From a virus, in IMG/VR virus record IMGVR_UViG_3300027969_000045: a stretch of DNA of 64,000 nucleotides; one strand, 5' to 3'. The notes beneath the pieces are model-generated. The model worked only from the letters and a program-made list of their open reading frames with translations, did not search any database and was not told the DNA's origin. Shown here piece after piece: positions 19,173 to 64,000 of this stretch. The position numbers were made by a program, and so were the translations under genes. Numbering within the stretch: position 1 is the first letter of the stretch; the number at the start of each line of letters is the position of its first letter.

Positions 19173-20366
19173 ATGAAGACTTTTGCCCAGTTTATAATAG
19201 AAGCACGAACTACTGCCGCATCCACGGAAGCAAAGAATCGTGGTCTTAAAAGTGATGCCCATGGAGATTATTACGATAATCAAGGAAATCTTGTAGCAAA
19301 AACTGTGGGAGGAAAGTTACAATATTTTGGTCAAGGTGGTGCCGGGGCACAACAGCAGCAACAAACACAACAAAGGACTTCACAAACATCATCACAACAA
19401 ACTGCGCCACAGCAGACTCAAACTGCACCACAGGAAGAGCAACAAGAACCAAATGGTGCAGTAATTGTATTGGGAAGATTCAATCCGCCATCCAAAAATC
19501 ACGAAGCACTTTTGAGATCGGGATATTCGCAAGCAAATAGAAGAAAATTTGAATATCGCATATACCCAAGTCGTATTCAGGATGATGCTACAAATCCATT
19601 GAATGTAAGACTTAAAGTTTCTTATATGCAATCAATGTATCCACAATATGCAGAATATATTGTGGATAGTGATAAGATGAAAACAATATTTGATGTTCTT
19701 GAATCTTTATATGGTGATGGATATACTGATGTAGTTATCGTTGTTGGTCAAGATAGACTTGGAGAATTTCAAAGTTTAGCACACAAAGGCGAAGGAGAAG
19801 CATATCAATTCAATACCATTCAGGTAATTTCTGCTGGTGTGAAAGATCCAGATAGTGATGTTGGAGGTGCTGGTTCTTCTGCGATGATGAGAACCGCTGC
19901 TGCTATGGGAGATTTTGAAAAGTTTTCAAGTGGCCTTCCCGCTACTATGAAGGTTAGTGAAAGAAAAGAAATGTTTAATACTATAAAAAGGTCTATGAAG
20001 GTAAATGAAAATACTGAATTATGGAAAATAGCGCCTGAACTTGATTATAATGGAATGAGATGGAACTATAAGAAAAATGGATTATTTGAGGTGGGAGCAT
20101 TCGTTGAAAATTTAAATACTGGATTAGTTGGAAGAATACTTCGCAAGGGGTCAAATCATCTTATCTGTGTGACAGAAGATGGAGTAATGTTTAAGAGTTG
20201 GTTAAGAGATTTGAGAGAAGTTCAAGAGATTGGAACTTGTGATTATAGAGCACACGCGCAATCAATGACGCCCGGACAACCAGTAGTTCCTTATACGGAT
20301 ACTGAAATTAAAATAACAGTACCAAAGAAAAAGATAAATACTAAAAGAAATAGTGGGTCTAAGTAA
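19173..20366 (+). CDS. Cytidyltransferase-like late protein with capsid-targeting-like N-terminus
   Basis: LGRFNPPSKNH (degenerate HxGH), VVGQDR, SSAMMR; N-terminus MKTFAQFIIE; Gln-rich linker; ATAAATA upstream. Confidence 0.75.
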   Translation: MKTFAQFIIEARTTAASTEAKNRGLKSDAHGDYYDNQGNLVAKTVGGKLQYFGQGGAGAQQQQQTQQRTSQTSSQQTAPQQTQTAPQEEQQEPNGAVIVLGRFNPPSKNHEALLRSGYSQANRRKFEYRIYPSRIQDDATNPLNVRLKVSYMQSMYPQYAEYIVDSDKMKTIFDVLESLYGDGYTDVVIVVGQDRLGEFQSLAHKGEGEAYQFNTIQVISAGVKDPDSDVGGAGSSAMMRTAAAMGDFEKFSSGLPATMKVSERKEMFNTIKRSMKVNENTELWKIAPELDYNGMRWNYKKNGLFEVGAFVENLNTGLVGRILRKGSNHLICVTEDGVMFKSWLRDLREVQEIGTCDYRAHAQSMTPGQPVVPYTDTEIKITVPKKKINTKRNSGSK

Positions 20367-27242: not shown

Positions 27243-28247
27243 ATGAATTTTATTGATCAAAAATACATTGGTCTGGTTTCTTCAAGACTGGAGAAGTTTA
27301 AACAAGTTAAAACTGGACTGTATAATTTTAGATGTGTATATTGTGGGGATTCACAAAAGAATAAAAGCAAGACAAGAGGATATATTTACGGTTATAAGAA
27401 CGATCATAATTACAAGTGTCACAATTGTGGAGTATCTAAATCTTTTACTAATTTTCTAAAAGATATTGACACCACTCTTTATGATCAATATATTATGGAG
27501 AGATATAAGAATGGTTCTACTGGCAAGGGATCTAATACACCGGAACCAAAATTCACCTTTGAAAAACCAAAATTCACAAAAAAAGCATTTGATTTGCCAT
27601 CCATCGCAGAACTAAATAAAGAACATTCGGCAAGAATTTATTTAGAAAACAGAAAAATTCCTCAAGATTTTTTGAGTCAATTATTTTATTGTGAAAAGTT
27701 CAAACAATGGACGAATGAACAAAAAAAAACTTTTGAATCTACAAAATACGATGAACCTAGAATCATCATTCCACTTATCAACAATGGAGAAATATTTGGA
27801 TTTCAGGGTCGTAGTTTAAGTAAGAAACCAAAAGTAAAATACATCACAATTATTCTAGATGAAGATCAACCAAAAATTTATGGATTAAACAGAATTGATT
27901 GGAACAAAACTGTTTATGTTGTAGAAGGTCCATTTGATAGTATGTTTATTGAAAATTCAATTGCGATGGTTGGTGCGGATATTGATAAAATGTTTTTCAT
28001 AGCAAATTTTGAAACCAATTTTGTTATGGTCTATGATAATGAAAAAAGAAATAAAGAGATGGTTGCACGATTAGAAAAAAGCATTGAGATGAAATTTCCT
28101 GTGGTAATTTGGCCAAAAGATTTAAAGGAAAAAGACATTAATGATATTGTATTATCTGGACAAGACGTGGAATCTATGCTAAAATTAAATACTTACCAAG
28201 GATTAGAAGCAAAACTTAAATTTACCAACTGGAAAAAAGTAGCATGA
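27243..28247 (+). CDS. gp61: DNA primase
   Basis: Zn ribbon CVYCGDS..CHNC; TOPRIM VVEGPFDS, YDNE, KDIND. Confidence 0.95.
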   Translation: MNFIDQKYIGLVSSRLEKFKQVKTGLYNFRCVYCGDSQKNKSKTRGYIYGYKNDHNYKCHNCGVSKSFTNFLKDIDTTLYDQYIMERYKNGSTGKGSNTPEPKFTFEKPKFTKKAFDLPSIAELNKEHSARIYLENRKIPQDFLSQLFYCEKFKQWTNEQKKTFESTKYDEPRIIIPLINNGEIFGFQGRSLSKKPKVKYITIILDEDQPKIYGLNRIDWNKTVYVVEGPFDSMFIENSIAMVGADIDKMFFIANFETNFVMVYDNEKRNKEMVARLEKSIEMKFPVVIWPKDLKEKDINDIVLSGQDVESMLKLNTYQGLEAKLKFTNWKKVA

Positions 28248-29959
28248 GTAACGGCATAAACGTAGTTAAGAGAGATGGGTCTATTGAAAGTTTAGACCTC
28301 AATAAACTTCATTTGATGGTTGAAGAGTCTTGTAAAGACCTTGCTGGAGTGTCTGCATCTCAAGTTGAGATGACTTCTGGAATTCAATTTTATGATGGAA
28401 TTTCAACAAGAGAAGTTCAAGAAATTTTGATCAAATCTGCAGCAGATTTGATTGATTTAGAAAATCCAAATTATCAGTTTGTGGCAGCAAGACTTCTTTT
28501 GTTCTCTGTTCGTAAATCACTTTACGGAAAAATTAAAGATCATCCTACATTCTTTGAACATATTAATAAATGTGTAGATGCAAGTGTTTATGATAAGGAA
28601 ATCTTATCATATTATACGGAAGAAGAACTAAATCGTCTTGGTGATTATATCAAACATAAACGGGATTATCTCTTCACCTATGCCGGTCTTCGTCAAGTTG
28701 TTGATAAATATCTTGTTCAAGATAGAAGCACCGGACAAGTATATGAAACTCCACAGTTCATGTATATGATGATTGCTGCAACAAAATTCTCCCAATATCC
28801 AAAAGAAACTCGTCTTTCATATGTAAAGAGGTACTATGACGCAATATCAAAACACAAAATCAACATCCCAACACCAATTATGGGAGGAGTTAGAACTCCT
28901 TTACGACAATTTGCAAGTTGTGTTCTTGTTGATTCTGATGATACCCTCGATAGCATCGGTCACTCTGATTTGGCTATTTACAAGTACGTTGCTCAAAGGG
29001 CTGGCATCGGTATCAATGCGGGCAGAATACGTGGTATCAATTCTAAAATCAGAGGCGGAGAAGTACAACACACAGGTGTTATTCCCTTCCTTAAAAAGTT
29101 TGAAGCAACTGTCAGAAGTTGCACTCAAAACGGTATCAGAGGTGGTTCAGCAACTGTTCACTTTCCAATCTGGCACCAAGAAATAGAAGACATTATTGTT
29201 CTGAAAAATAATAAGGGAACTGAAGATAATCGTGTTCGTAAGTTAGACTATTCTATTCAAATCAGCAAAATCTTCTATGAACGATTTATCCGCAACGAAG
29301 AAATCACACTCTTCTCTCCCCACGATGTTCCTGGTCTTTATGATGCTTTTGGCACTGATGGATTTGACGACCTTTATGTGGGTTATGAACGAAATGAATC
29401 TATTCCAAGAAAAACTATCGGTGCTCAAGAACTCTTTCTGGACCTTCTAAAAGAACGTGCAGAAACAGGTCGTATTTATATTATGAATATTGACCATTGT
29501 AATTCTCATAGTTCTTTTCTTGATAAGGTTTCAATGAGTAACCTTTGTGTTGCTGGTGATACAAAGATTAAAATCAAATACCCAAAAGCAATATATGATG
29601 ATATTGGAGAGATTTATGATTGGAAAGTTTATGAAGAAGAAATTGAGATTGGAGATCTGGATGAATATATTAGTTCCAGAGAAATTAGAGTTATGTCTTA
29701 TAAAGTAAGTGATAATGATCCTTGTGAGGATGTTCCTCAAATAGAAGTTCTTTCTTATAATACAGAAACTAATCAACAAGAATGGGCACCTATTACAGCA
29801 TTTGCCGAAACATCACCAAAAGCAAAGGTAATGAGAATTACTGATGAAGAAAGTGGTAAGAGTATTGTAGTGACACCAGAGCATAAAGTATTCACAAAAA
29901 ATCGTGGATATGTAATGGCAAAAGACCTAACCGAAACTGATGAGTTGGCAATCAACTAA
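28244..29959 (+). CDS. nrdA: Class Ia ribonucleotide reductase alpha, N-terminal part, fused to a 137-aa split-intein N fragment
   Basis: ATP cone VVKRDG, PTPIM, ASCVL, QNGIRGGS, MSNL then CVAGDT (29546) and block B VTPEHKVFT. Confidence 0.95.
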   Translation: MSNGINVVKRDGSIESLDLNKLHLMVEESCKDLAGVSASQVEMTSGIQFYDGISTREVQEILIKSAADLIDLENPNYQFVAARLLLFSVRKSLYGKIKDHPTFFEHINKCVDASVYDKEILSYYTEEELNRLGDYIKHKRDYLFTYAGLRQVVDKYLVQDRSTGQVYETPQFMYMMIAATKFSQYPKETRLSYVKRYYDAISKHKINIPTPIMGGVRTPLRQFASCVLVDSDDTLDSIGHSDLAIYKYVAQRAGIGINAGRIRGINSKIRGGEVQHTGVIPFLKKFEATVRSCTQNGIRGGSATVHFPIWHQEIEDIIVLKNNKGTEDNRVRKLDYSIQISKIFYERFIRNEEITLFSPHDVPGLYDAFGTDGFDDLYVGYERNESIPRKTIGAQELFLDLLKERAETGRIYIMNIDHCNSHSSFLDKVSMSNLCVAGDTKIKIKYPKAIYDDIGEIYDWKVYEEEIEIGDLDEYISSREIRVMSYKVSDNDPCEDVPQIEVLSYNTETNQQEWAPITAFAETSPKAKVMRITDEESGKSIVVTPEHKVFTKNRGYVMAKDLTETDELAIN

Positions 29960-59541: not shown

Positions 59542-59751
59542 ATGACTGTAACAACCAATGAGCGCGGGCAAAATAATATGTGGGCACTTGAGCCAAAAGT
59601 TTATATTTCTGATGAAGATGCAATCAAATATGGAATTAAAACTTATGCCGAACGTGCAGAGCTTGCTAATGGAAAATTTGCGATGCTTGGATTTGTTGCC
59701 GCAATTATATCTTATGCGACAACAGGACACCTCTTTTTTGGTGTAATCTAA
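59542..59751 (+). CDS. hli: High-light inducible protein
   Basis: AELANGKFAMLGF chlorophyll-binding helix (K replaces the usual R). Confidence 0.88.
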   Translation: MTVTTNERGQNNMWALEPKVYISDEDAIKYGIKTYAERAELANGKFAMLGFVAAIISYATTGHLFFGVI

Positions 59752-59837
59752 TGGGAGAAGCAATCTTTACCATCGCAAGCATTGCCTTCTTTGTGCTTCT
59801 TTCACATTCTATCAATCAACTTTCAGAAACTTACTAA
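59751..59837 (+). CDS. Small hydrophobic peptide (28 aa)
   Basis: MGEAIFTIASIAFFVLLSHSINQLSETY, coupled between two hli genes. Confidence 0.45.
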   Translation: MGEAIFTIASIAFFVLLSHSINQLSETY

Positions 59838-59850
59838 CGGAGAAACAAAA

Positions 59851-59970
59851 ATGAAATTCGGATTTACCCCTGAGGCAGAACTTCTTAATTCTCGCCTCGC
59901 AATGCTTGGATTTGTAATCGCAGTTGGCACTTATCTCGCCACTGGGCAAATTCTGCCTGGAGTATGGTGA
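59851..59970 (+). CDS. hli: High-light inducible protein
   Basis: MKFGFTPEAELLNSRLAMLGF..TGQILPGVW; GGAG RBS. Confidence 0.9.
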   Translation: MKFGFTPEAELLNSRLAMLGFVIAVGTYLATGQILPGVW

Positions 59971-60009: not shown

Positions 60010-60041
60010 ATCCTCACTCTAAATAAGGGTGAGGATTTTTT
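60010..60041 (+). terminator. Terminator after hli genes
   Basis: ATCCTCACTCT/AGGGTGAGGAT with T run; CTAAATA at apex. Confidence 0.7.
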
Positions 60042-60130: not shown

Positions 60131-60164
60131 TTGACAGGACCCAGGGACCGTGCTATGATAAATA
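60131..60164 (+). promoter_or_regulatory. psbA promoter: sigma70 with overlapping late promoter
   Basis: TTGACA-17 bp-TATGAT (TG extended) overlapping ATAAATA. Confidence 0.75.
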
Positions 60165-60318: not shown

Positions 60319-61398
60319 ATGACTGCTACAATTGCTACACGTTCTGATAATAATGTCTGGGAACAGTTTTGTTCTTGGATTACTTCTACCGACAACCGTC
60401 TTTATGTTGGTTGGTTCGGTGTTCTACTTATTCCAACAGTTTTAACTGCAACCATCTGCTTTATTCTTGCTTTTATTGCGGCACCTCCAACAGATCTGGA
60501 CGGAATTAGGGAAGCAGTATCTGGTTCTCTAATGTATGGCAATAACATTATTAGTGCTTCAGTAATTCCTAGTTCTAATGCCATAGGATTGCATCTATAC
60601 CCAATTTGGGAAGCACAATCTCTGGAAGAATGGCTATACAATGGAGGCGAATATCAACTTATTGTTTTCCATTTTATGATTGCAATTTATGCTTATATGG
60701 GTCGTGAATGGGAACTTTCATATAGGTTGTCAATGCGCCCTTGGATTTGTGTTGCTTATAGTGCTCCTGTTGCTGCTGCTACTGCTATCTTTCTTGCTTA
60801 TCCAATTTCACAAGGTTCATTTTCTGATGGATTTCCTTTGGGAATTTCGGGCCAATTTAATTTTATGTTAGTCTTTCAGGCAGAGCATAATATTCTTATG
60901 AATCCGTTTCATATGTTAGGTGTTGCTGGTGTTTTTGGTGGCGCTTTAGTTTCTGCCACTCACGGATCACTCGTAACAAGTTCTCTTGTGAGAGAAACTA
61001 CTGAGGAGGAAAGTCAAAATAAAGGATATAAATTTGGTCAAGAACAAGAAACTTATAATTTAGTTGCCGCACACGGGTATCTGGGTCGTCTTCTGTTTCA
61101 ATATGCATCCTTTAATAATAGTCGTTCATTGCACTTTGTGATGGCTGCACTACCTGTTATTGGTATTTGGTTTGCTGCTTGTGGAATTTTTATGTCTGGT
61201 TTTAATCTCAACGGACTAAATTTCAACCAAAGTATCTTAGATCATCAGGGGCGTGTTGTTCCTACTTGGGCGGACGTATTGAACCGGGCAAATCTTGGTC
61301 TAGAAACTATTCATGAACGCAATAGTCATCAGTTTCCATTAGATTTGGCATTTTCTTCTGGTTCTGAAGTTGCACTTGTTGCACCTTCAGTTGGTTGA
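60319..61398 (+). CDS. psbA: Photosystem II D1 protein, strongly divergent
   Basis: Full-length D1 with D61, Y161, D170, E189, H190, H198, H215, H252, S264, H272, H332, E333, H337, D342, A344; no intron. Confidence 0.97.
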
Positions 61399-61464
61399 CA
61401 AATAAATTATTATTTGGTATAATAATCCCATAAATACCAAGAGGAAGGAAACTTCCTCTTTTTT
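61395..61464 (+). promoter_or_regulatory. sigma70 and late promoters followed immediately by a terminator
   Basis: TTGACA 61395, 17 bp, TATAAT 61418; ATAAATA; AAGAGGAAG-GAAA-CTTCCTCTT with T run. Confidence 0.65.
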
Positions 61465-61479
61465 AATAACTCAACTTTT

Positions 61480-62190
61480 ATGGACACTATATACGAACAA
61501 TTTATTTCATATTTAAAGGAAAAGGAAAAAAATATATCTGGATATGTTGAAAAGCATAGGATTATTCCGGGACATTCTGGTGGAAAATATATTGATAATA
61601 ATATAGTATTAGTCTCTTTTCCAGAACATTGTTTGGCGCATTTTTACCGATATTTAGCATATGGAAATTCTATTGACTTATATGCCTATCATAAAATGGT
61701 AGGAGATACAGTAGAAGCGAGAATATCTAGGTCAAAATCGGGTGGAGAAGCAGCAAAAAATATTAAAGTTGGATGTTTTAAAGATTATAAATGTAGGGAA
61801 GATACTTTAATAAACCCAGGAAGAAGTGCATATTATAATAAGGATATACAATCGTCTAATGGCAAAAAAAGAAAGAAACAACTTACAGAAGAAGATTTTT
61901 TTTCTTCTGAAAATCAAAAAGTTCGCGGTAAAAAAGGAGCAGAAGTTAATAGAAAAAATGGTACTGGAGCATTTGACTCAAAAAATTTAGAGAAGGCAAG
62001 AAAAAAACAAAAAGAAATGGGAATTGGTGTTCATAATAAGTTGTTTCAAAAATCTATGGCATTTAGAAGATGGGGTGCGGTACTTGATGGTAAAAGATTA
62101 TTTTATGATTTGGATATGAGAACTACTCTATCGGAAACTTTTGTCGATTATCATCTTAATTATGGATTAATTAATAATTACTCTAACTAA
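61480..62190 (+). CDS. HNH-like homing endonuclease downstream of psbA
   Basis: EKHRIIPGHSGGKY..NNIVLV..EHCLAHFYR; basic repeats similar in style to the 15136 HNH. Confidence 0.75.
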   Translation: MDTIYEQFISYLKEKEKNISGYVEKHRIIPGHSGGKYIDNNIVLVSFPEHCLAHFYRYLAYGNSIDLYAYHKMVGDTVEARISRSKSGGEAAKNIKVGCFKDYKCREDTLINPGRSAYYNKDIQSSNGKKRKKQLTEEDFFSSENQKVRGKKGAEVNRKNGTGAFDSKNLEKARKKQKEMGIGVHNKLFQKSMAFRRWGAVLDGKRLFYDLDMRTTLSETFVDYHLNYGLINNYSN

Positions 62191-62229: not shown

Positions 62230-62853
62230 ATGTCTTATTTGAATCATAACTTACCTGATTGGAGTTGTTACATTCGTAATGAGTTTCTATATAATCACAA
62301 AAAAGGACAAGGTGAAGTTACAAAATGTGATGTTCACTCTGTCGCAAGTATGGAGAAACGAGTTCCATTATTTGAATGTTTTCTAGAGAATGGTGTAAAC
62401 TGGACACGCAGACCATTACATTCACTTTGTTGGAAACTTGATGCAGAAATAGAACCTCTCAATCAAATTATGTATTGGGACTGTTTCTCTTCTTATGTGG
62501 ATGTTCAACGAAGAAATCGTCTTGCCGGATTGAAAGCAGAACTTATTCGTCCCGATAATACTAAAGTTCAAGGTGAGTATATGTTCACTCTTGACTGGGG
62601 ATTTGAGAATAAAGGAATGACGGACTTTAATTATTCAGAAACTCCAGAACATAAATGCGCTCATTTGTTCAAGGTGGAGACTGGTAATTATTATGCATAT
62701 CCAAATAATAGAATTATATGGATGGACTCCGCCTGGACATTCAATCGCATCCAGTCAAATCCCGGATATGAGATTGATACGAATTTGTATTCTGTAGAGA
62801 ACACAAGAACCTTTGAGACTTCAGACCATTACATTTACGACATTAAAGAATAA
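62230..62853 (+). CDS. Conserved cyanophage hypothetical protein
   Basis: YIRNEFLY..WDCFS..YMFTLDW..SETPEHKCAH..GNYYAYPNNRI. Confidence 0.75.
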   Translation: MSYLNHNLPDWSCYIRNEFLYNHKKGQGEVTKCDVHSVASMEKRVPLFECFLENGVNWTRRPLHSLCWKLDAEIEPLNQIMYWDCFSSYVDVQRRNRLAGLKAELIRPDNTKVQGEYMFTLDWGFENKGMTDFNYSETPEHKCAHLFKVETGNYYAYPNNRIIWMDSAWTFNRIQSNPGYEIDTNLYSVENTRTFETSDHYIYDIKE

Positions 62854-62930: not shown

Positions 62931-64000
62931 GTGGCACTCAGAAAACCATCAGATATTTTTGATAAAAAAATTGAAGATATTAACATTCCAGTTGTTGAGT
63001 CTGATAGTTCTTTGTATCTTGAGTTAAGTAAAGTAGAAAGTTTATCAGAACAAGTATCTCAATTACAACAAGAACTATCGCAAAAAGTAATTCAAACTGA
63101 TCTTGAGAAGTTAGTTCTATCTCAGATCAATTCAATGCGGGAGAATTTCAATTACCTGCAAAATGACTTTAAGAAATCAAATAAAAAAGATATTTCTGAA
63201 TTTAAAGATAAAGTATCACAACTTACGGAGATTGTTGGTAATCTCATAGAAGAAGAAATACCAAAATACAAAAAACAAGTCACCAAAAATGAAGTTCGTA
63301 TTGGTGAAAAGTTTGATACTCTTAAAGAAGTAGTAGAAGAAAATATTGTTGATATTAGAGGTGAGATAGACACTCAAGTTAACAATATTGCCGAAGTAAT
63401 TGATAATAATCTAGAGTATTTTAACAATCAACTTCAAGAAACTTCTTCTAAAGTAAAAGACACTACCGATACTTATAATAAACTTTCTAAAATTTTAGAA
63501 AGTAAACTAGTAAAGGAAAATGAGAAGTTAGAAGAATACTCACAGATTATTCAATCTCTTCACGAAGAATTTGTAGAACTTCAATCATTACTAGAAGAAA
63601 AGACCTCTTCTTATGATCAAGTAATTCAAGAAAAGTTTGGGGATATTTCTTCAGATATAAACAAAAAAATTCGTAGTATTGATGAAGAAGTAGATACCTT
63701 TAAGAATAAAGTATCTTCAGATATAAACAAAAAAATTAGTAGTATTGATGAAGAAGTAGATACCTTTAAGAATAAAGTATCTTCAGAAATTTCAAATATC
63801 AAAGCAGATGTTGTTATTAACGAACAGCATATTAAGAATGTAGATAAGTATCTAAAAGAAAATCATTCAGAACTTATAGAACTCAAAGAAGAAGTTTTTG
63901 GTGAGATTGAAAAATTACCTATTGGAAATCTTCAAGAAAATTTAGAAAGACTTGAAAAGAAAATTGATTTTATCAAAGAAACTTATTCTCGAATTGAACC
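62931..64000 (+). CDS. Long coiled-coil late protein (runs off the window; not in ORF track)
   Basis: GTG start VALRKPSDIF.. after ATAAATA; heptad-rich frame with no stop seen in the parts read. Confidence 0.7.
   Translation, partial: MALRKPSDIFDKKIEDINIPVVESDSSLYLELSKVESLSEQVSQLQQELSQKVIQTDLEKLVLSQINSMRENFNYLQNDFKKSNKKDISEFKDKVSQLTEIVGNLIEEEIPKYKKQVTKNEVRIGEKFDTLKEVVEENIVDIRGEIDTQVNNIAEVIDNNLEYFNNQLQETSSKVKDTTDTYNKLSKILESKLVKENEKLEEYSQIIQSLHEEFVELQSLLEEKTSSYDQVIQEKFGDISSDINKKIRSIDEEVDTFKNKVSSDINKKISSIDEEVDTFKNKVSSEISNIKADVVINEQHIKNVDKYLKENHSELIELKEEVFGEIEKLPIGNLQENLERLEKKIDFIKETYSRIE
63648..63787 (+). repeat. 66-bp in-frame tandem duplication (2 copies plus partial, 1 mismatch)
   Basis: TCTTCAGATATAAACAAAAAAATT(C/A)GTAGTATTGATGAAGAAGTAGATACCTTTAAGAATAAAGTA twice. 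Confidence 0.9.

Follow-up and report, generated by a model that had tools for sequence, protein, structure and literature searches.

The psbA gene and its product

The viral DNA stretch analysed here (IMG/VR virus record IMGVR_UViG_3300027969_000045; 64,000 nucleotides, the whole of which is referred to as the window) carries a psbA gene (60319-61398, +), coding for the D1 protein of photosystem II (PSII), which is preceded by two genes for high-light-inducible proteins (hli) and followed by a homing-endonuclease-like open reading frame (ORF). The gene consists of 359 codons in an uninterrupted reading frame, and Pfam and structure alignment assign its product as a pre-D1 of 359 amino acids, made up of a mature part of 344 amino acids and a C-terminal extension of 15 amino acids. 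The protein matched the Pfam family Photo_RC (PF00124) at 3.9e-88, and its residues 1-358 aligned without gaps to the solved D1 proteins 7yq7_A and 6wj6_A (E about 1e-194), so that the numbering of the ORF equals the standard D1 numbering. All ligands of the Mn4CaO5 cluster were retained (D170, E189, H332, E333, D342, and the C-terminus of A344), as were the second-sphere residues D61, E65, and H337, the YZ pair Y161-H190, the PD1 ligand H198, the Fe ligands H215 and H272, and E130. Several of these water-oxidation ligands were missing from the ChlF-like and rogue D1 paralogues used as a control comparison. The hydrogen-bond partners of QB (H215, S264, and F265) were intact too, and H215, L218, V219, A251, H252, S264, F265, L271, and H272 were all unchanged in the QB region. 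The 15-residue extension after A344, which concerns processing by CtpA, was present in the predicted protein; F345 at the CtpA P1' site should be of no concern, because D1 of the Chlamydomonas S345F mutant is processed normally with F at this site (PMC8909930). An initial annotation, made from the letters of the window, had listed the ligands and E130 as kept and a series of substitutions as present. Both lists were confirmed in full, the latter with a check of the codons. Judged by its domain, collinearity, ligand set, and position in the tree, the gene is predicted to encode a full-length, standard water-oxidising D1.

Phylogenetic position of the phage D1

In maximum-likelihood trees, the window D1 fell into a clade of 17 distinct D1 sequences (Shimodaira-Hasegawa-like approximate likelihood ratio test, SH-aLRT, 99-100), all of which are located on viral or metagenome contigs. 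Its metagenomic relatives were 97, 92, 87, 84, and 80-82% identical to it, and the clusters concerned stand for about 199 member sequences. The substitutions described below are common to this clade, as the initial annotation had anticipated by proposing a new D1 type. A D1 phylogeny, named there as a check, was made with reference D1 sequences comprising all psbA paralogues of five cyanobacteria, two of them far-red-acclimating, which supplied far-red, ChlF-like, and rogue D1 as well as D2 references. In a quick IQ-TREE run with D2 as outgroup, the clade (100*) was nested among G4-type sequences and stood apart from ChlF-like, rogue, far-red, and G3-like D1; because the D2 root is a very long branch and the deep branches are weakly supported, the tree can be relied upon for the clade as such and for its distinctness from the special classes, but not beyond that. 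The nearest branches were those of Synechococcus sp. UW140 (P0064) and the viral contigs L057 and L040. The stem of the clade measured about 0.15 substitutions per site, versus 0.4 for the far-red stem and 0.35 for the rogue stem. These data indicate a D1 sub-lineage that, by its place in the trees, lies inside G4 and has so far been found only on viral and metagenome contigs. The same D1 type occurs in a second phage background, namely that of contig L003, which carries genes for an endolysin, a virion structural protein, and collagen-like tail fibres; the related contig L196 carries the D1 lineage as well. Seven or eight tRNA genes were found on the latter contig a few kb downstream of psbA (L196:9734-13757).

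Membership of two special D1 classes was considered and rejected. The initial annotation had remarked that position 179 is altered in far-red D1, which turned out to be incorrect: T179 is kept in the far-red-light photoacclimation (FaRLiP) cluster D1 of both Chlorogloeopsis fritschii PCC 6912 and Fischerella thermalis PCC 7521, and the far-red D1 of these two strains is only 71% identical to the window D1 and branches elsewhere. Similarly, its hint at a microaerobic D1' (G3) did not hold. Only A80 and A286 of the signature G80A, F158L, and T286A were present, F158 being kept, and the window D1 did not group with the G3-like rows. The remodelled QB region is not a G3 pocket either, as G3-like sequences possess a standard QB niche and T179.

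Rarity of the substitutions

D1 is among the most conserved proteins known. A comparison set of 217 distinct D1 sequences was assembled from a protein database, IMG/VR contigs, and cyanobacterial genomes, and residue frequencies were counted among the 201 D1 outside the clade. Four of the window substitutions (G138S, G164S, M172F, and V157I) were absent from these 201 sequences and four others occurred once each (T179Q, M214T, L275M, and P66A), whereas I259L (4), I248L (5), and P111E (5) were found in a few. Less rare were F211V (11, in addition to 15 with Ile), H195N (14), N338Q (14), and A336S (12), and commoner still were F255L (27), F274V (27), W278L (31), G80A (42), and T286A (55). Position 138 is not fixed within the clade, as S, A, and G were all seen. 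A conservation of 99% or more in 200 non-clade D1 was shown by 149 sites; the window D1 deviated at eight of them and the other sequences at a median of 0 and at most 4, which substantiates the earlier claim that normally conserved sites are altered. Hardly any variation is seen at positions such as T179, G164, V157, M214, and L275, from cyanobacteria to the sampled specialised ChlF-like and rogue paralogues. The only non-clade D1 with T179Q in the sets examined came from a viral contig (L079). Since T179 is conserved even in far-red, ChlF-like, and rogue D1, T179Q is the most striking single change.

The window D1 is 72-78% identical to non-clade D1, whereas the latter have a median identity of 82% to each other. 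The best psbA match among 512 phage records with a psbA match reached 77.7% protein identity and about 70% nucleotide identity, none of these records containing a D1 more than 80% identical. A scan of 185,579 species genomes (one each), seeded with the diagnostic peptides of the window, yielded nothing above 79% identity. In a literature search that fell short of most subscription journals, no paper was found on T179Q or M214T in D1, nor one describing a freshwater phage D1 lineage with these substitutions; a 2026 preprint on phage D1 and D2 concerns marine Prochlorococcus and Synechococcus systems and other residues. Outside the clade, two IMG/VR contigs (L049 and L054) encode very divergent viral D1 proteins of their own, which are 72% identical to the window D1, carry M214Q, I259F, and F274L, and deviate at 12 of the sites with a conservation of 97% or more.

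Modular anatomy of the phage D1

The distribution of the changes was plotted from 32 positions at which the window residue occurs in less than 8% of the non-clade D1, and four modules could be distinguished. A first module (V58T, P66A, V83I, A100Q, and P111E) was found in most members of both subclades of the clade. A second module, on the ChlD1/YZ side (codons 157-195, 60787..60903, +), comprises V157I, I160A, G164S, M172F (codon 60832-60834, +), T179Q (codon 60853-60855, +), and H195N/S, the window having N, and is confined to the subclade of the window (subclade A). A third module covers the QB niche (codons 211-278, 60949..61152, +) with F211V/I (V in the window), M214T, I248L, F255L, I259L, F274V, L275M, and W278L, and is common to both subclades. 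A fourth module at the lumenal end of helix E (codons 288-294, 61180..61200, +), consisting of L288C, S291F, T292M, M293S, and A294G, is again confined to the subclade of the window and co-inherited with the second module.

Mosaics of phage psbA have long been known, and two clade members are of this kind. P0014 combines the first, second, and fourth modules with a wholly standard QB region, and P0028 has a standard C-terminal third. An independent-pairs covariation test on positions 211/255/274/278 and 172/179/164/291 returned two to four independent events, which is too few for significance. A further set of changes on the PheoD1 side was noticed in subclade B (P0018, P0019, P0024, P0028, P0060, and L011) and in P0022, namely F33A/S, L106A, and a M127A/G128M swap beside E130; all bearers of this set except for P0022 keep M172 and T179. 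The reaction centre has therefore been altered in this lineage by another group of changes, distinct from that of the window.

Selection and nucleotide composition

Ratios of nonsynonymous to synonymous substitution rates (dN/dS) were calculated pairwise according to Nei-Gojobori. Comparison of the window psbA with clade members gave dN/dS values of 0.05-0.11 at dS values of 0.65-1.2. Over the same dS range, the median dN/dS was 0.082 for the clade, 0.069 for ordinary psbA on viral contigs, and 0.042 for cellular psbA. The gene is as constrained as any phage psbA; therefore, decay, for which the initial annotation had named a ratio near 1 as the sign, is excluded, and the gene is selectively maintained. 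The G+C content at third codon positions (GC3) of psbA was 0.23, within the range of the other genes of the window (0.16-0.30) and below that of all 49 ordinary viral psbA genes (median 0.44, minimum 0.247). This upholds the earlier description of AT-rich codons lacking the usual psbA bias and points to a long residence in low-G+C phage genomes.

Genomic context, leader, and expression

The window has a G+C content of 33% and contains genes for a family-B DNA polymerase, a DnaB-like helicase, a SbcC-like nuclease subunit, and ribonucleotide reductase subunits (nrdAB families). No close relative was found among 50,697 phage records, and sampled 31-mers of the window were encountered mainly in freshwater and lake-water metagenomes. 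From these gene families and their occurrence, the window is considered part of an uncultured freshwater T4-like cyanomyovirus. Upstream of psbA, the first hli gene (59542..59751, +; phrog_178 at 1.2e-29) and the second one (59782..59970, +; phrog_178 at 7e-18 and Pfam Chloroa_b-bind at 1.8e-4) are closed off by a terminator-like hairpin with T run (60010..60036, +), predicted by consensus scan only. A candidate sigma-70-like promoter (TTGACA-17-TATGAT with TG extension; 60131..60159, +), matching the consensus at 11 of 12 positions and likewise known from the consensus alone, precedes a PhotoRC-II RNA motif (RF01717; 60188..60278, +), which scored 60.4 bits against a gathering score of 39 (E 3.7e-9). 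PhotoRC-II is a cis-regulatory leader known upstream of cyanophage psbA. It precedes psbA in eight of ten related loci (L001, L005, L006, L007, L010, L011, L080, and L165) and was not found upstream of psbA in the other two (L003 and L196). The phage context, the hli neighbours, and the PhotoRC-II leader together are those of a cyanophage psbA cassette. Consensus scans further placed a putative promoter (a perfect TTGACA-17-TATAAT; 61395-61423, +) over the stop codon of psbA and a hairpin with T run (61439-61460, +) behind the gene.

A second Photo_RC gene (psbD) was not found within the 64-kb window, nor in the contigs of relatives of 91.6 kb and 48.5 kb, which are fragments of phage genomes. 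In one lake-water metatranscriptome run, the exact matches were three contigs of 174, 173, and 165 nt, all of which lie inside psbA, its flanks being without a match. As weak evidence, these contigs are compatible with transcription of the gene, although they could include carried-over DNA.

Elsewhere in the window, a gene of 207 amino acids (62230-62853, +) without Pfam match belongs to phrog_3704 (labelled 'ferredoxin'); it is 80% identical to genes of the marine Synechococcus phages S-B05 and S-B43 that lie beside purM or methyltransferase genes, and is better conserved than the adjoining D1. An ORF of 571 amino acids (28244-29959, +) matches only the N-terminal half of the profiles of the ribonucleotide reductase large subunit, and the C-terminal stretch of a cytidyltransferase-like ORF located 8 kb upstream (19173-20363, +) matches reductase alpha-subunit families, indicating that nrdA may be split or interrupted. 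In a coiled-coil-like ORF (62931-63998) that weakly matches tape-measure proteins, a segment of about 22 residues, DINKKI.SIDEEVDTFKNKVSS, is duplicated almost perfectly in tandem at 63500-63800 (+).

Homing endonucleases and introns near psbA

A free-standing homing-endonuclease-like ORF of 236 amino acids (61480..62190, +; phrog_655 at 1.1e-8) lies directly downstream of psbA and starts 81 bp behind it. Its best phage match is the endonuclease located in the psbA group I intron of Synechococcus phage S-CBWM1 (31% identity over 95%, 2e-21). The same ORF follows the 97%-identical psbA of L165, a GIY-YIG/NUMOD3 ORF accompanies psbA in L001, and no recognised nuclease is found beside psbA in L003 and L196. 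In L080 (2618-2854), the D1 gene carries a group I intron near codons 74-92 (Rfam, 110.6 bits). L081 shows the same split alignment and probably possesses the same group I intron, and in L010 (4003-4211), whose D1 is 91% identical, about 210 nt are inserted near codon 334, without a Rfam match at the gathering score. Such endonucleases and introns may promote psbA mosaicism. They do not account for the divergence, because selection is strong and the substitutions persist beside a different or no recognised nuclease, so that the endonuclease-driven drift suggested by the initial annotation is not supported.

Functional interpretation and alternative explanations

At a probability of about 0.62, we consider psbA of the window a working auxiliary gene of a virus-only D1 lineage, in which two coherent sets of changes, around QB and around ChlD1, were fixed and then conserved, the retuning of PSII itself being inferred. 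During infection, the phage D1 would be inserted into host PSII, replacing damaged host D1, and would pair with host D2, because no psbD is present in the window. The QB niche of the lineage is de-aromatised (F211V/I, F255L, F274V, and W278L) and further altered by M214T, I248L, I259L, and L275M, and in the subclade of the window the ChlD1 site is rebuilt by Gln179 and Phe172, with changes at positions 157, 160, 164, 195, and 288-294. Such changes may alter the binding and exchange of plastoquinone and inhibitors and may give the primary donor a different site energy and redox potential, whereby charge separation, recombination, and photodamage would be tuned in the infected cell. Altered quinone or inhibitor binding and redox tuning, as proposed from the start, are plausible.

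For the QB side, the niche is described as extending from F211 to L275, including F211, L218, F255, F265, L271, F274, and L275 (PMC8398153). In calculations, the quinone head is attracted most strongly by F255, the tail being in contact with F211, while the simulated contacts of atrazine include M214 and F255 (PMC4030317). With H215, S264, F265, L218, V219, A251, and L271 unchanged, the chemistry of quinone reduction should be retained; departures from standard values are expected for the affinity, exchange rate, and redox potential of QB and for the binding of inhibitors. For the donor side, T179 is hydrogen-bonded to the water that ligates ChlD1 axially (PMC10498673), and M172 points at the ChlD1 ring at a distance of 3.8 Å (PMC12107152). 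Quantum mechanics/molecular mechanics calculations attributed the lowering of the excitation energy of ChlD1 relative to ChlD2 and the stabilisation of ChlD1+ to two residues of D1, namely M172 and T179 (PMC7368266). As both are named as tuners of ChlD1, replacing both should shift the site energy and potential of the donor. The longer side chain of Gln179 could form a hydrogen bond with the axial water of ChlD1 or displace it. We hypothesise that the phage would gain a PSII that keeps up electron flow, or recombines less destructively, while host repair fails.

Several observations weigh against this interpretation. The claims on phenotype are extrapolated from mutants of other organisms or from computation. 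A cellular Nostocales isoform shares the changes at positions 211, 255, 274, and 278, each of which is present in 5-15% of the comparison set; therefore, PSII can function in the ordinary way with them, and their effect may be close to neutral. The spectral shifts published for T179 mutants are no larger than about 1 nm, as with the difference spectrum of T179E (PMC4083425). An AlphaFold2 model on a 36-sequence alignment had a mean predicted local distance difference test score of 53, too poor to assess contacts between the modules. In addition, the comparison D1 sequences were gathered by similarity to the query, with marine picocyanobacterial hosts under-sampled, and RNA cover was judged on the assembled contigs of a single run, in which uncovered parts are no sign of silence.

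The most serious alternative, although in our view rather unlikely, is that of a functional D1 whose substitutions are near-neutral lineage markers frozen by epistasis, long residence in phages having led to conservative hydrophobic swaps with compensatory partners, so that PSII would behave as standard. Most changes are indeed from one hydrophobic residue to another (F to V or L, I to L, L to M, and V to I), the set at 211/255/274/278 is found in cellular Nostocales D1, and S345F, T286A, and G80A are known or common benign variants (PMC8909930; PMC12107152). The short stem of the clade compared with the far-red and rogue stems and the existence of other odd viral D1, such as those of L049 and L054 with M214Q, fit this explanation as well. 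It does not readily account for changes at sites with a conservation of 99% or more in about 200 D1, for the replacement of T179, which is kept even in the ChlF-like, rogue, and far-red paralogues, or for the clustering of the changes around two cofactors and their block-wise inheritance. Moreover, inhibitor binding in plants is measurably altered by F274V and by F255I, another replacement of the residue affected by F255L (PMC13756829), and M172 and T179 are computed as D1-specific ChlD1 tuners (PMC7368266).

The other explanations are far less probable. Recent capture from an unsampled cyanobacterial host whose D1 has the same features seems improbable: phage psbA is generally of host origin, freshwater picocyanobacteria are under-sampled, and one of their D1 proteins (P0064, Synechococcus sp. 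UW140) is among the nearest outgroups, but no D1 with more than 79% identity emerged from the scan of 185,579 species, the GC3 of 0.23 is fully ameliorated to the phage, and within-clade dS exceeds 0.65, as befits an old lineage. All 17 clade members (17/17) are, moreover, on viral or metagenome contigs, with a phage gene context wherever examined. More improbable still is a decaying or endonuclease-scrambled gene, evolving under relaxed constraint or through error-prone repair near the homing endonuclease. The nuclease-like ORF lies only 81 bp away, P0014 and P0028 are mosaic, and the ten differences from the 97% relative are all within the first 33 residues; against this stand the intact frame, the full set of catalytic residues, a dN/dS of about 0.08 as in ordinary phage psbA, and the same substitutions beside a GIY-YIG nuclease (L001) or no recognised nuclease (L003 and L196), while many cultured phages with psbA-linked nucleases or introns have an ordinary D1. 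Hardly any credence is given to a phage version of microaerobic D1' or far-red D1. Two of the three D1' markers and E130 are present, yet G80A and T286A occur in 42/201 and 55/201 standard D1, F158 is kept, T179 and a standard QB niche characterise the G3-like sequences, far-red D1 keeps T179, and the clade stands apart from all special classes in the tree.

Within the preferred reading of a working gene of a virus-only lineage, a bolder proposal, which we put forward tentatively and below even odds, is that of a virus-specific PSII variant, in which Gln179 and Phe172 change or replace the water ligation of ChlD1, the QB niche lacks four aromatic residues, and both donor energy and QB behaviour are shifted. 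If so, electron flow would be favoured or singlet-oxygen damage lowered during infection, and this would be the first natural D1 with an altered environment of the ChlD1 axial ligand, as well as a natural experiment on two residues that theory links to the active D1 branch. More generally, these D1 proteins offer natural, evolution-tested variants for two questions, namely the tuning of ChlD1 as primary donor and the affinity of the QB niche for quinones and inhibitors. They suggest that phage photosystem genes are not mere copies of host genes and exist in reaction-centre flavours of their own, shuffled as modules between phages, which is relevant to photosynthesis models of infected freshwater picocyanobacteria. 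New in the present analysis are the modular structure, the Nostocales parallel, the failed far-red and G3 links, the control dN/dS values, the PhotoRC-II leader, and the link to the M172/T179 computations and to resistance alleles.

Comparison with known systems

The closest known counterparts are the G4 D1 proteins of cultured cyanophages (such as Synechococcus phages S-CREM1, Syn1, S-RIM44, and S-CRM01), which have the same length and ligand set and whose psbA is also an auxiliary gene beside hli with a PhotoRC-II leader. However, they are 77-78% identical to the window D1 in amino acids and about 70% in nucleotides, and keep F211, M214, F255, F274, L275, and W278 as well as M172 and T179. 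The freshwater picocyanobacterial and phage D1 proteins of P0064, L057, and L040 (74-77% identical) share A336S, N338Q, and some of the changes at 291-293 with the window, but have a standard QB niche and standard M172 and T179. An association of psbA with a group I intron or homing endonuclease is known from cyanophage S-PM2. In S-CBWM1, the endonuclease resides inside a group I intron of psbA, whereas in the window a nuclease 31% identical to it stands free behind an intron-less psbA.

The cellular Nostocales isoform (for example at L085, L090, and L096, from a Chroococcales metagenome-assembled genome, Nostoc, and Halotia) shares F211I/V, F255L, F274V, and W278L with the phage D1, and nearly all non-clade cases of these four changes come from it. 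It lacks M214T, I248L, L275M, and the changes on the ChlD1 side, and has I259F, F260W, and A263V of its own. The overlap is probably due to parallel evolution. The 211/255/274/278 set of this isoform shows that some of the remodelling around QB is functional in cells. The loci coding for it (L085, L088, L090, L091, L093, L096, L101, L104, and others) otherwise specify an ordinary Nostocales D1 with Q130, and no description of an isoform with F211I/V, F255L, I259F, F260W, A263V, F274V, and W278L was found in the literature examined.

Similarly, the QB changes can be set beside viable, field-evolved herbicide-resistance alleles of weeds. Phe274Val of wild radish is identical to F274V, and Phe255Ile of shepherd's purse and hair fescue is analogous to F255L; resistant plants show an altered binding of triazines, triazinones, and ureas (PMC13756829). 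These alleles are single, recent chloroplast mutations, whereas the phage D1 possesses an anciently fixed set of eight residues. On the ChlD1 side, the engineered Synechocystis D1 mutants T179H, T179V, and T179E perturb residue 179 and the natural PsbA2 of Thermosynechococcus (M172L) perturbs residue 172 beside ChlD1, with shifted spectra and energetics of ChlD1 as the outcome (PMC10498673, PMC4083425, PMC12107152, PMC7368266). Unlike these variants of either residue, the phage D1, with M172F together with T179Q, represents a natural double change.

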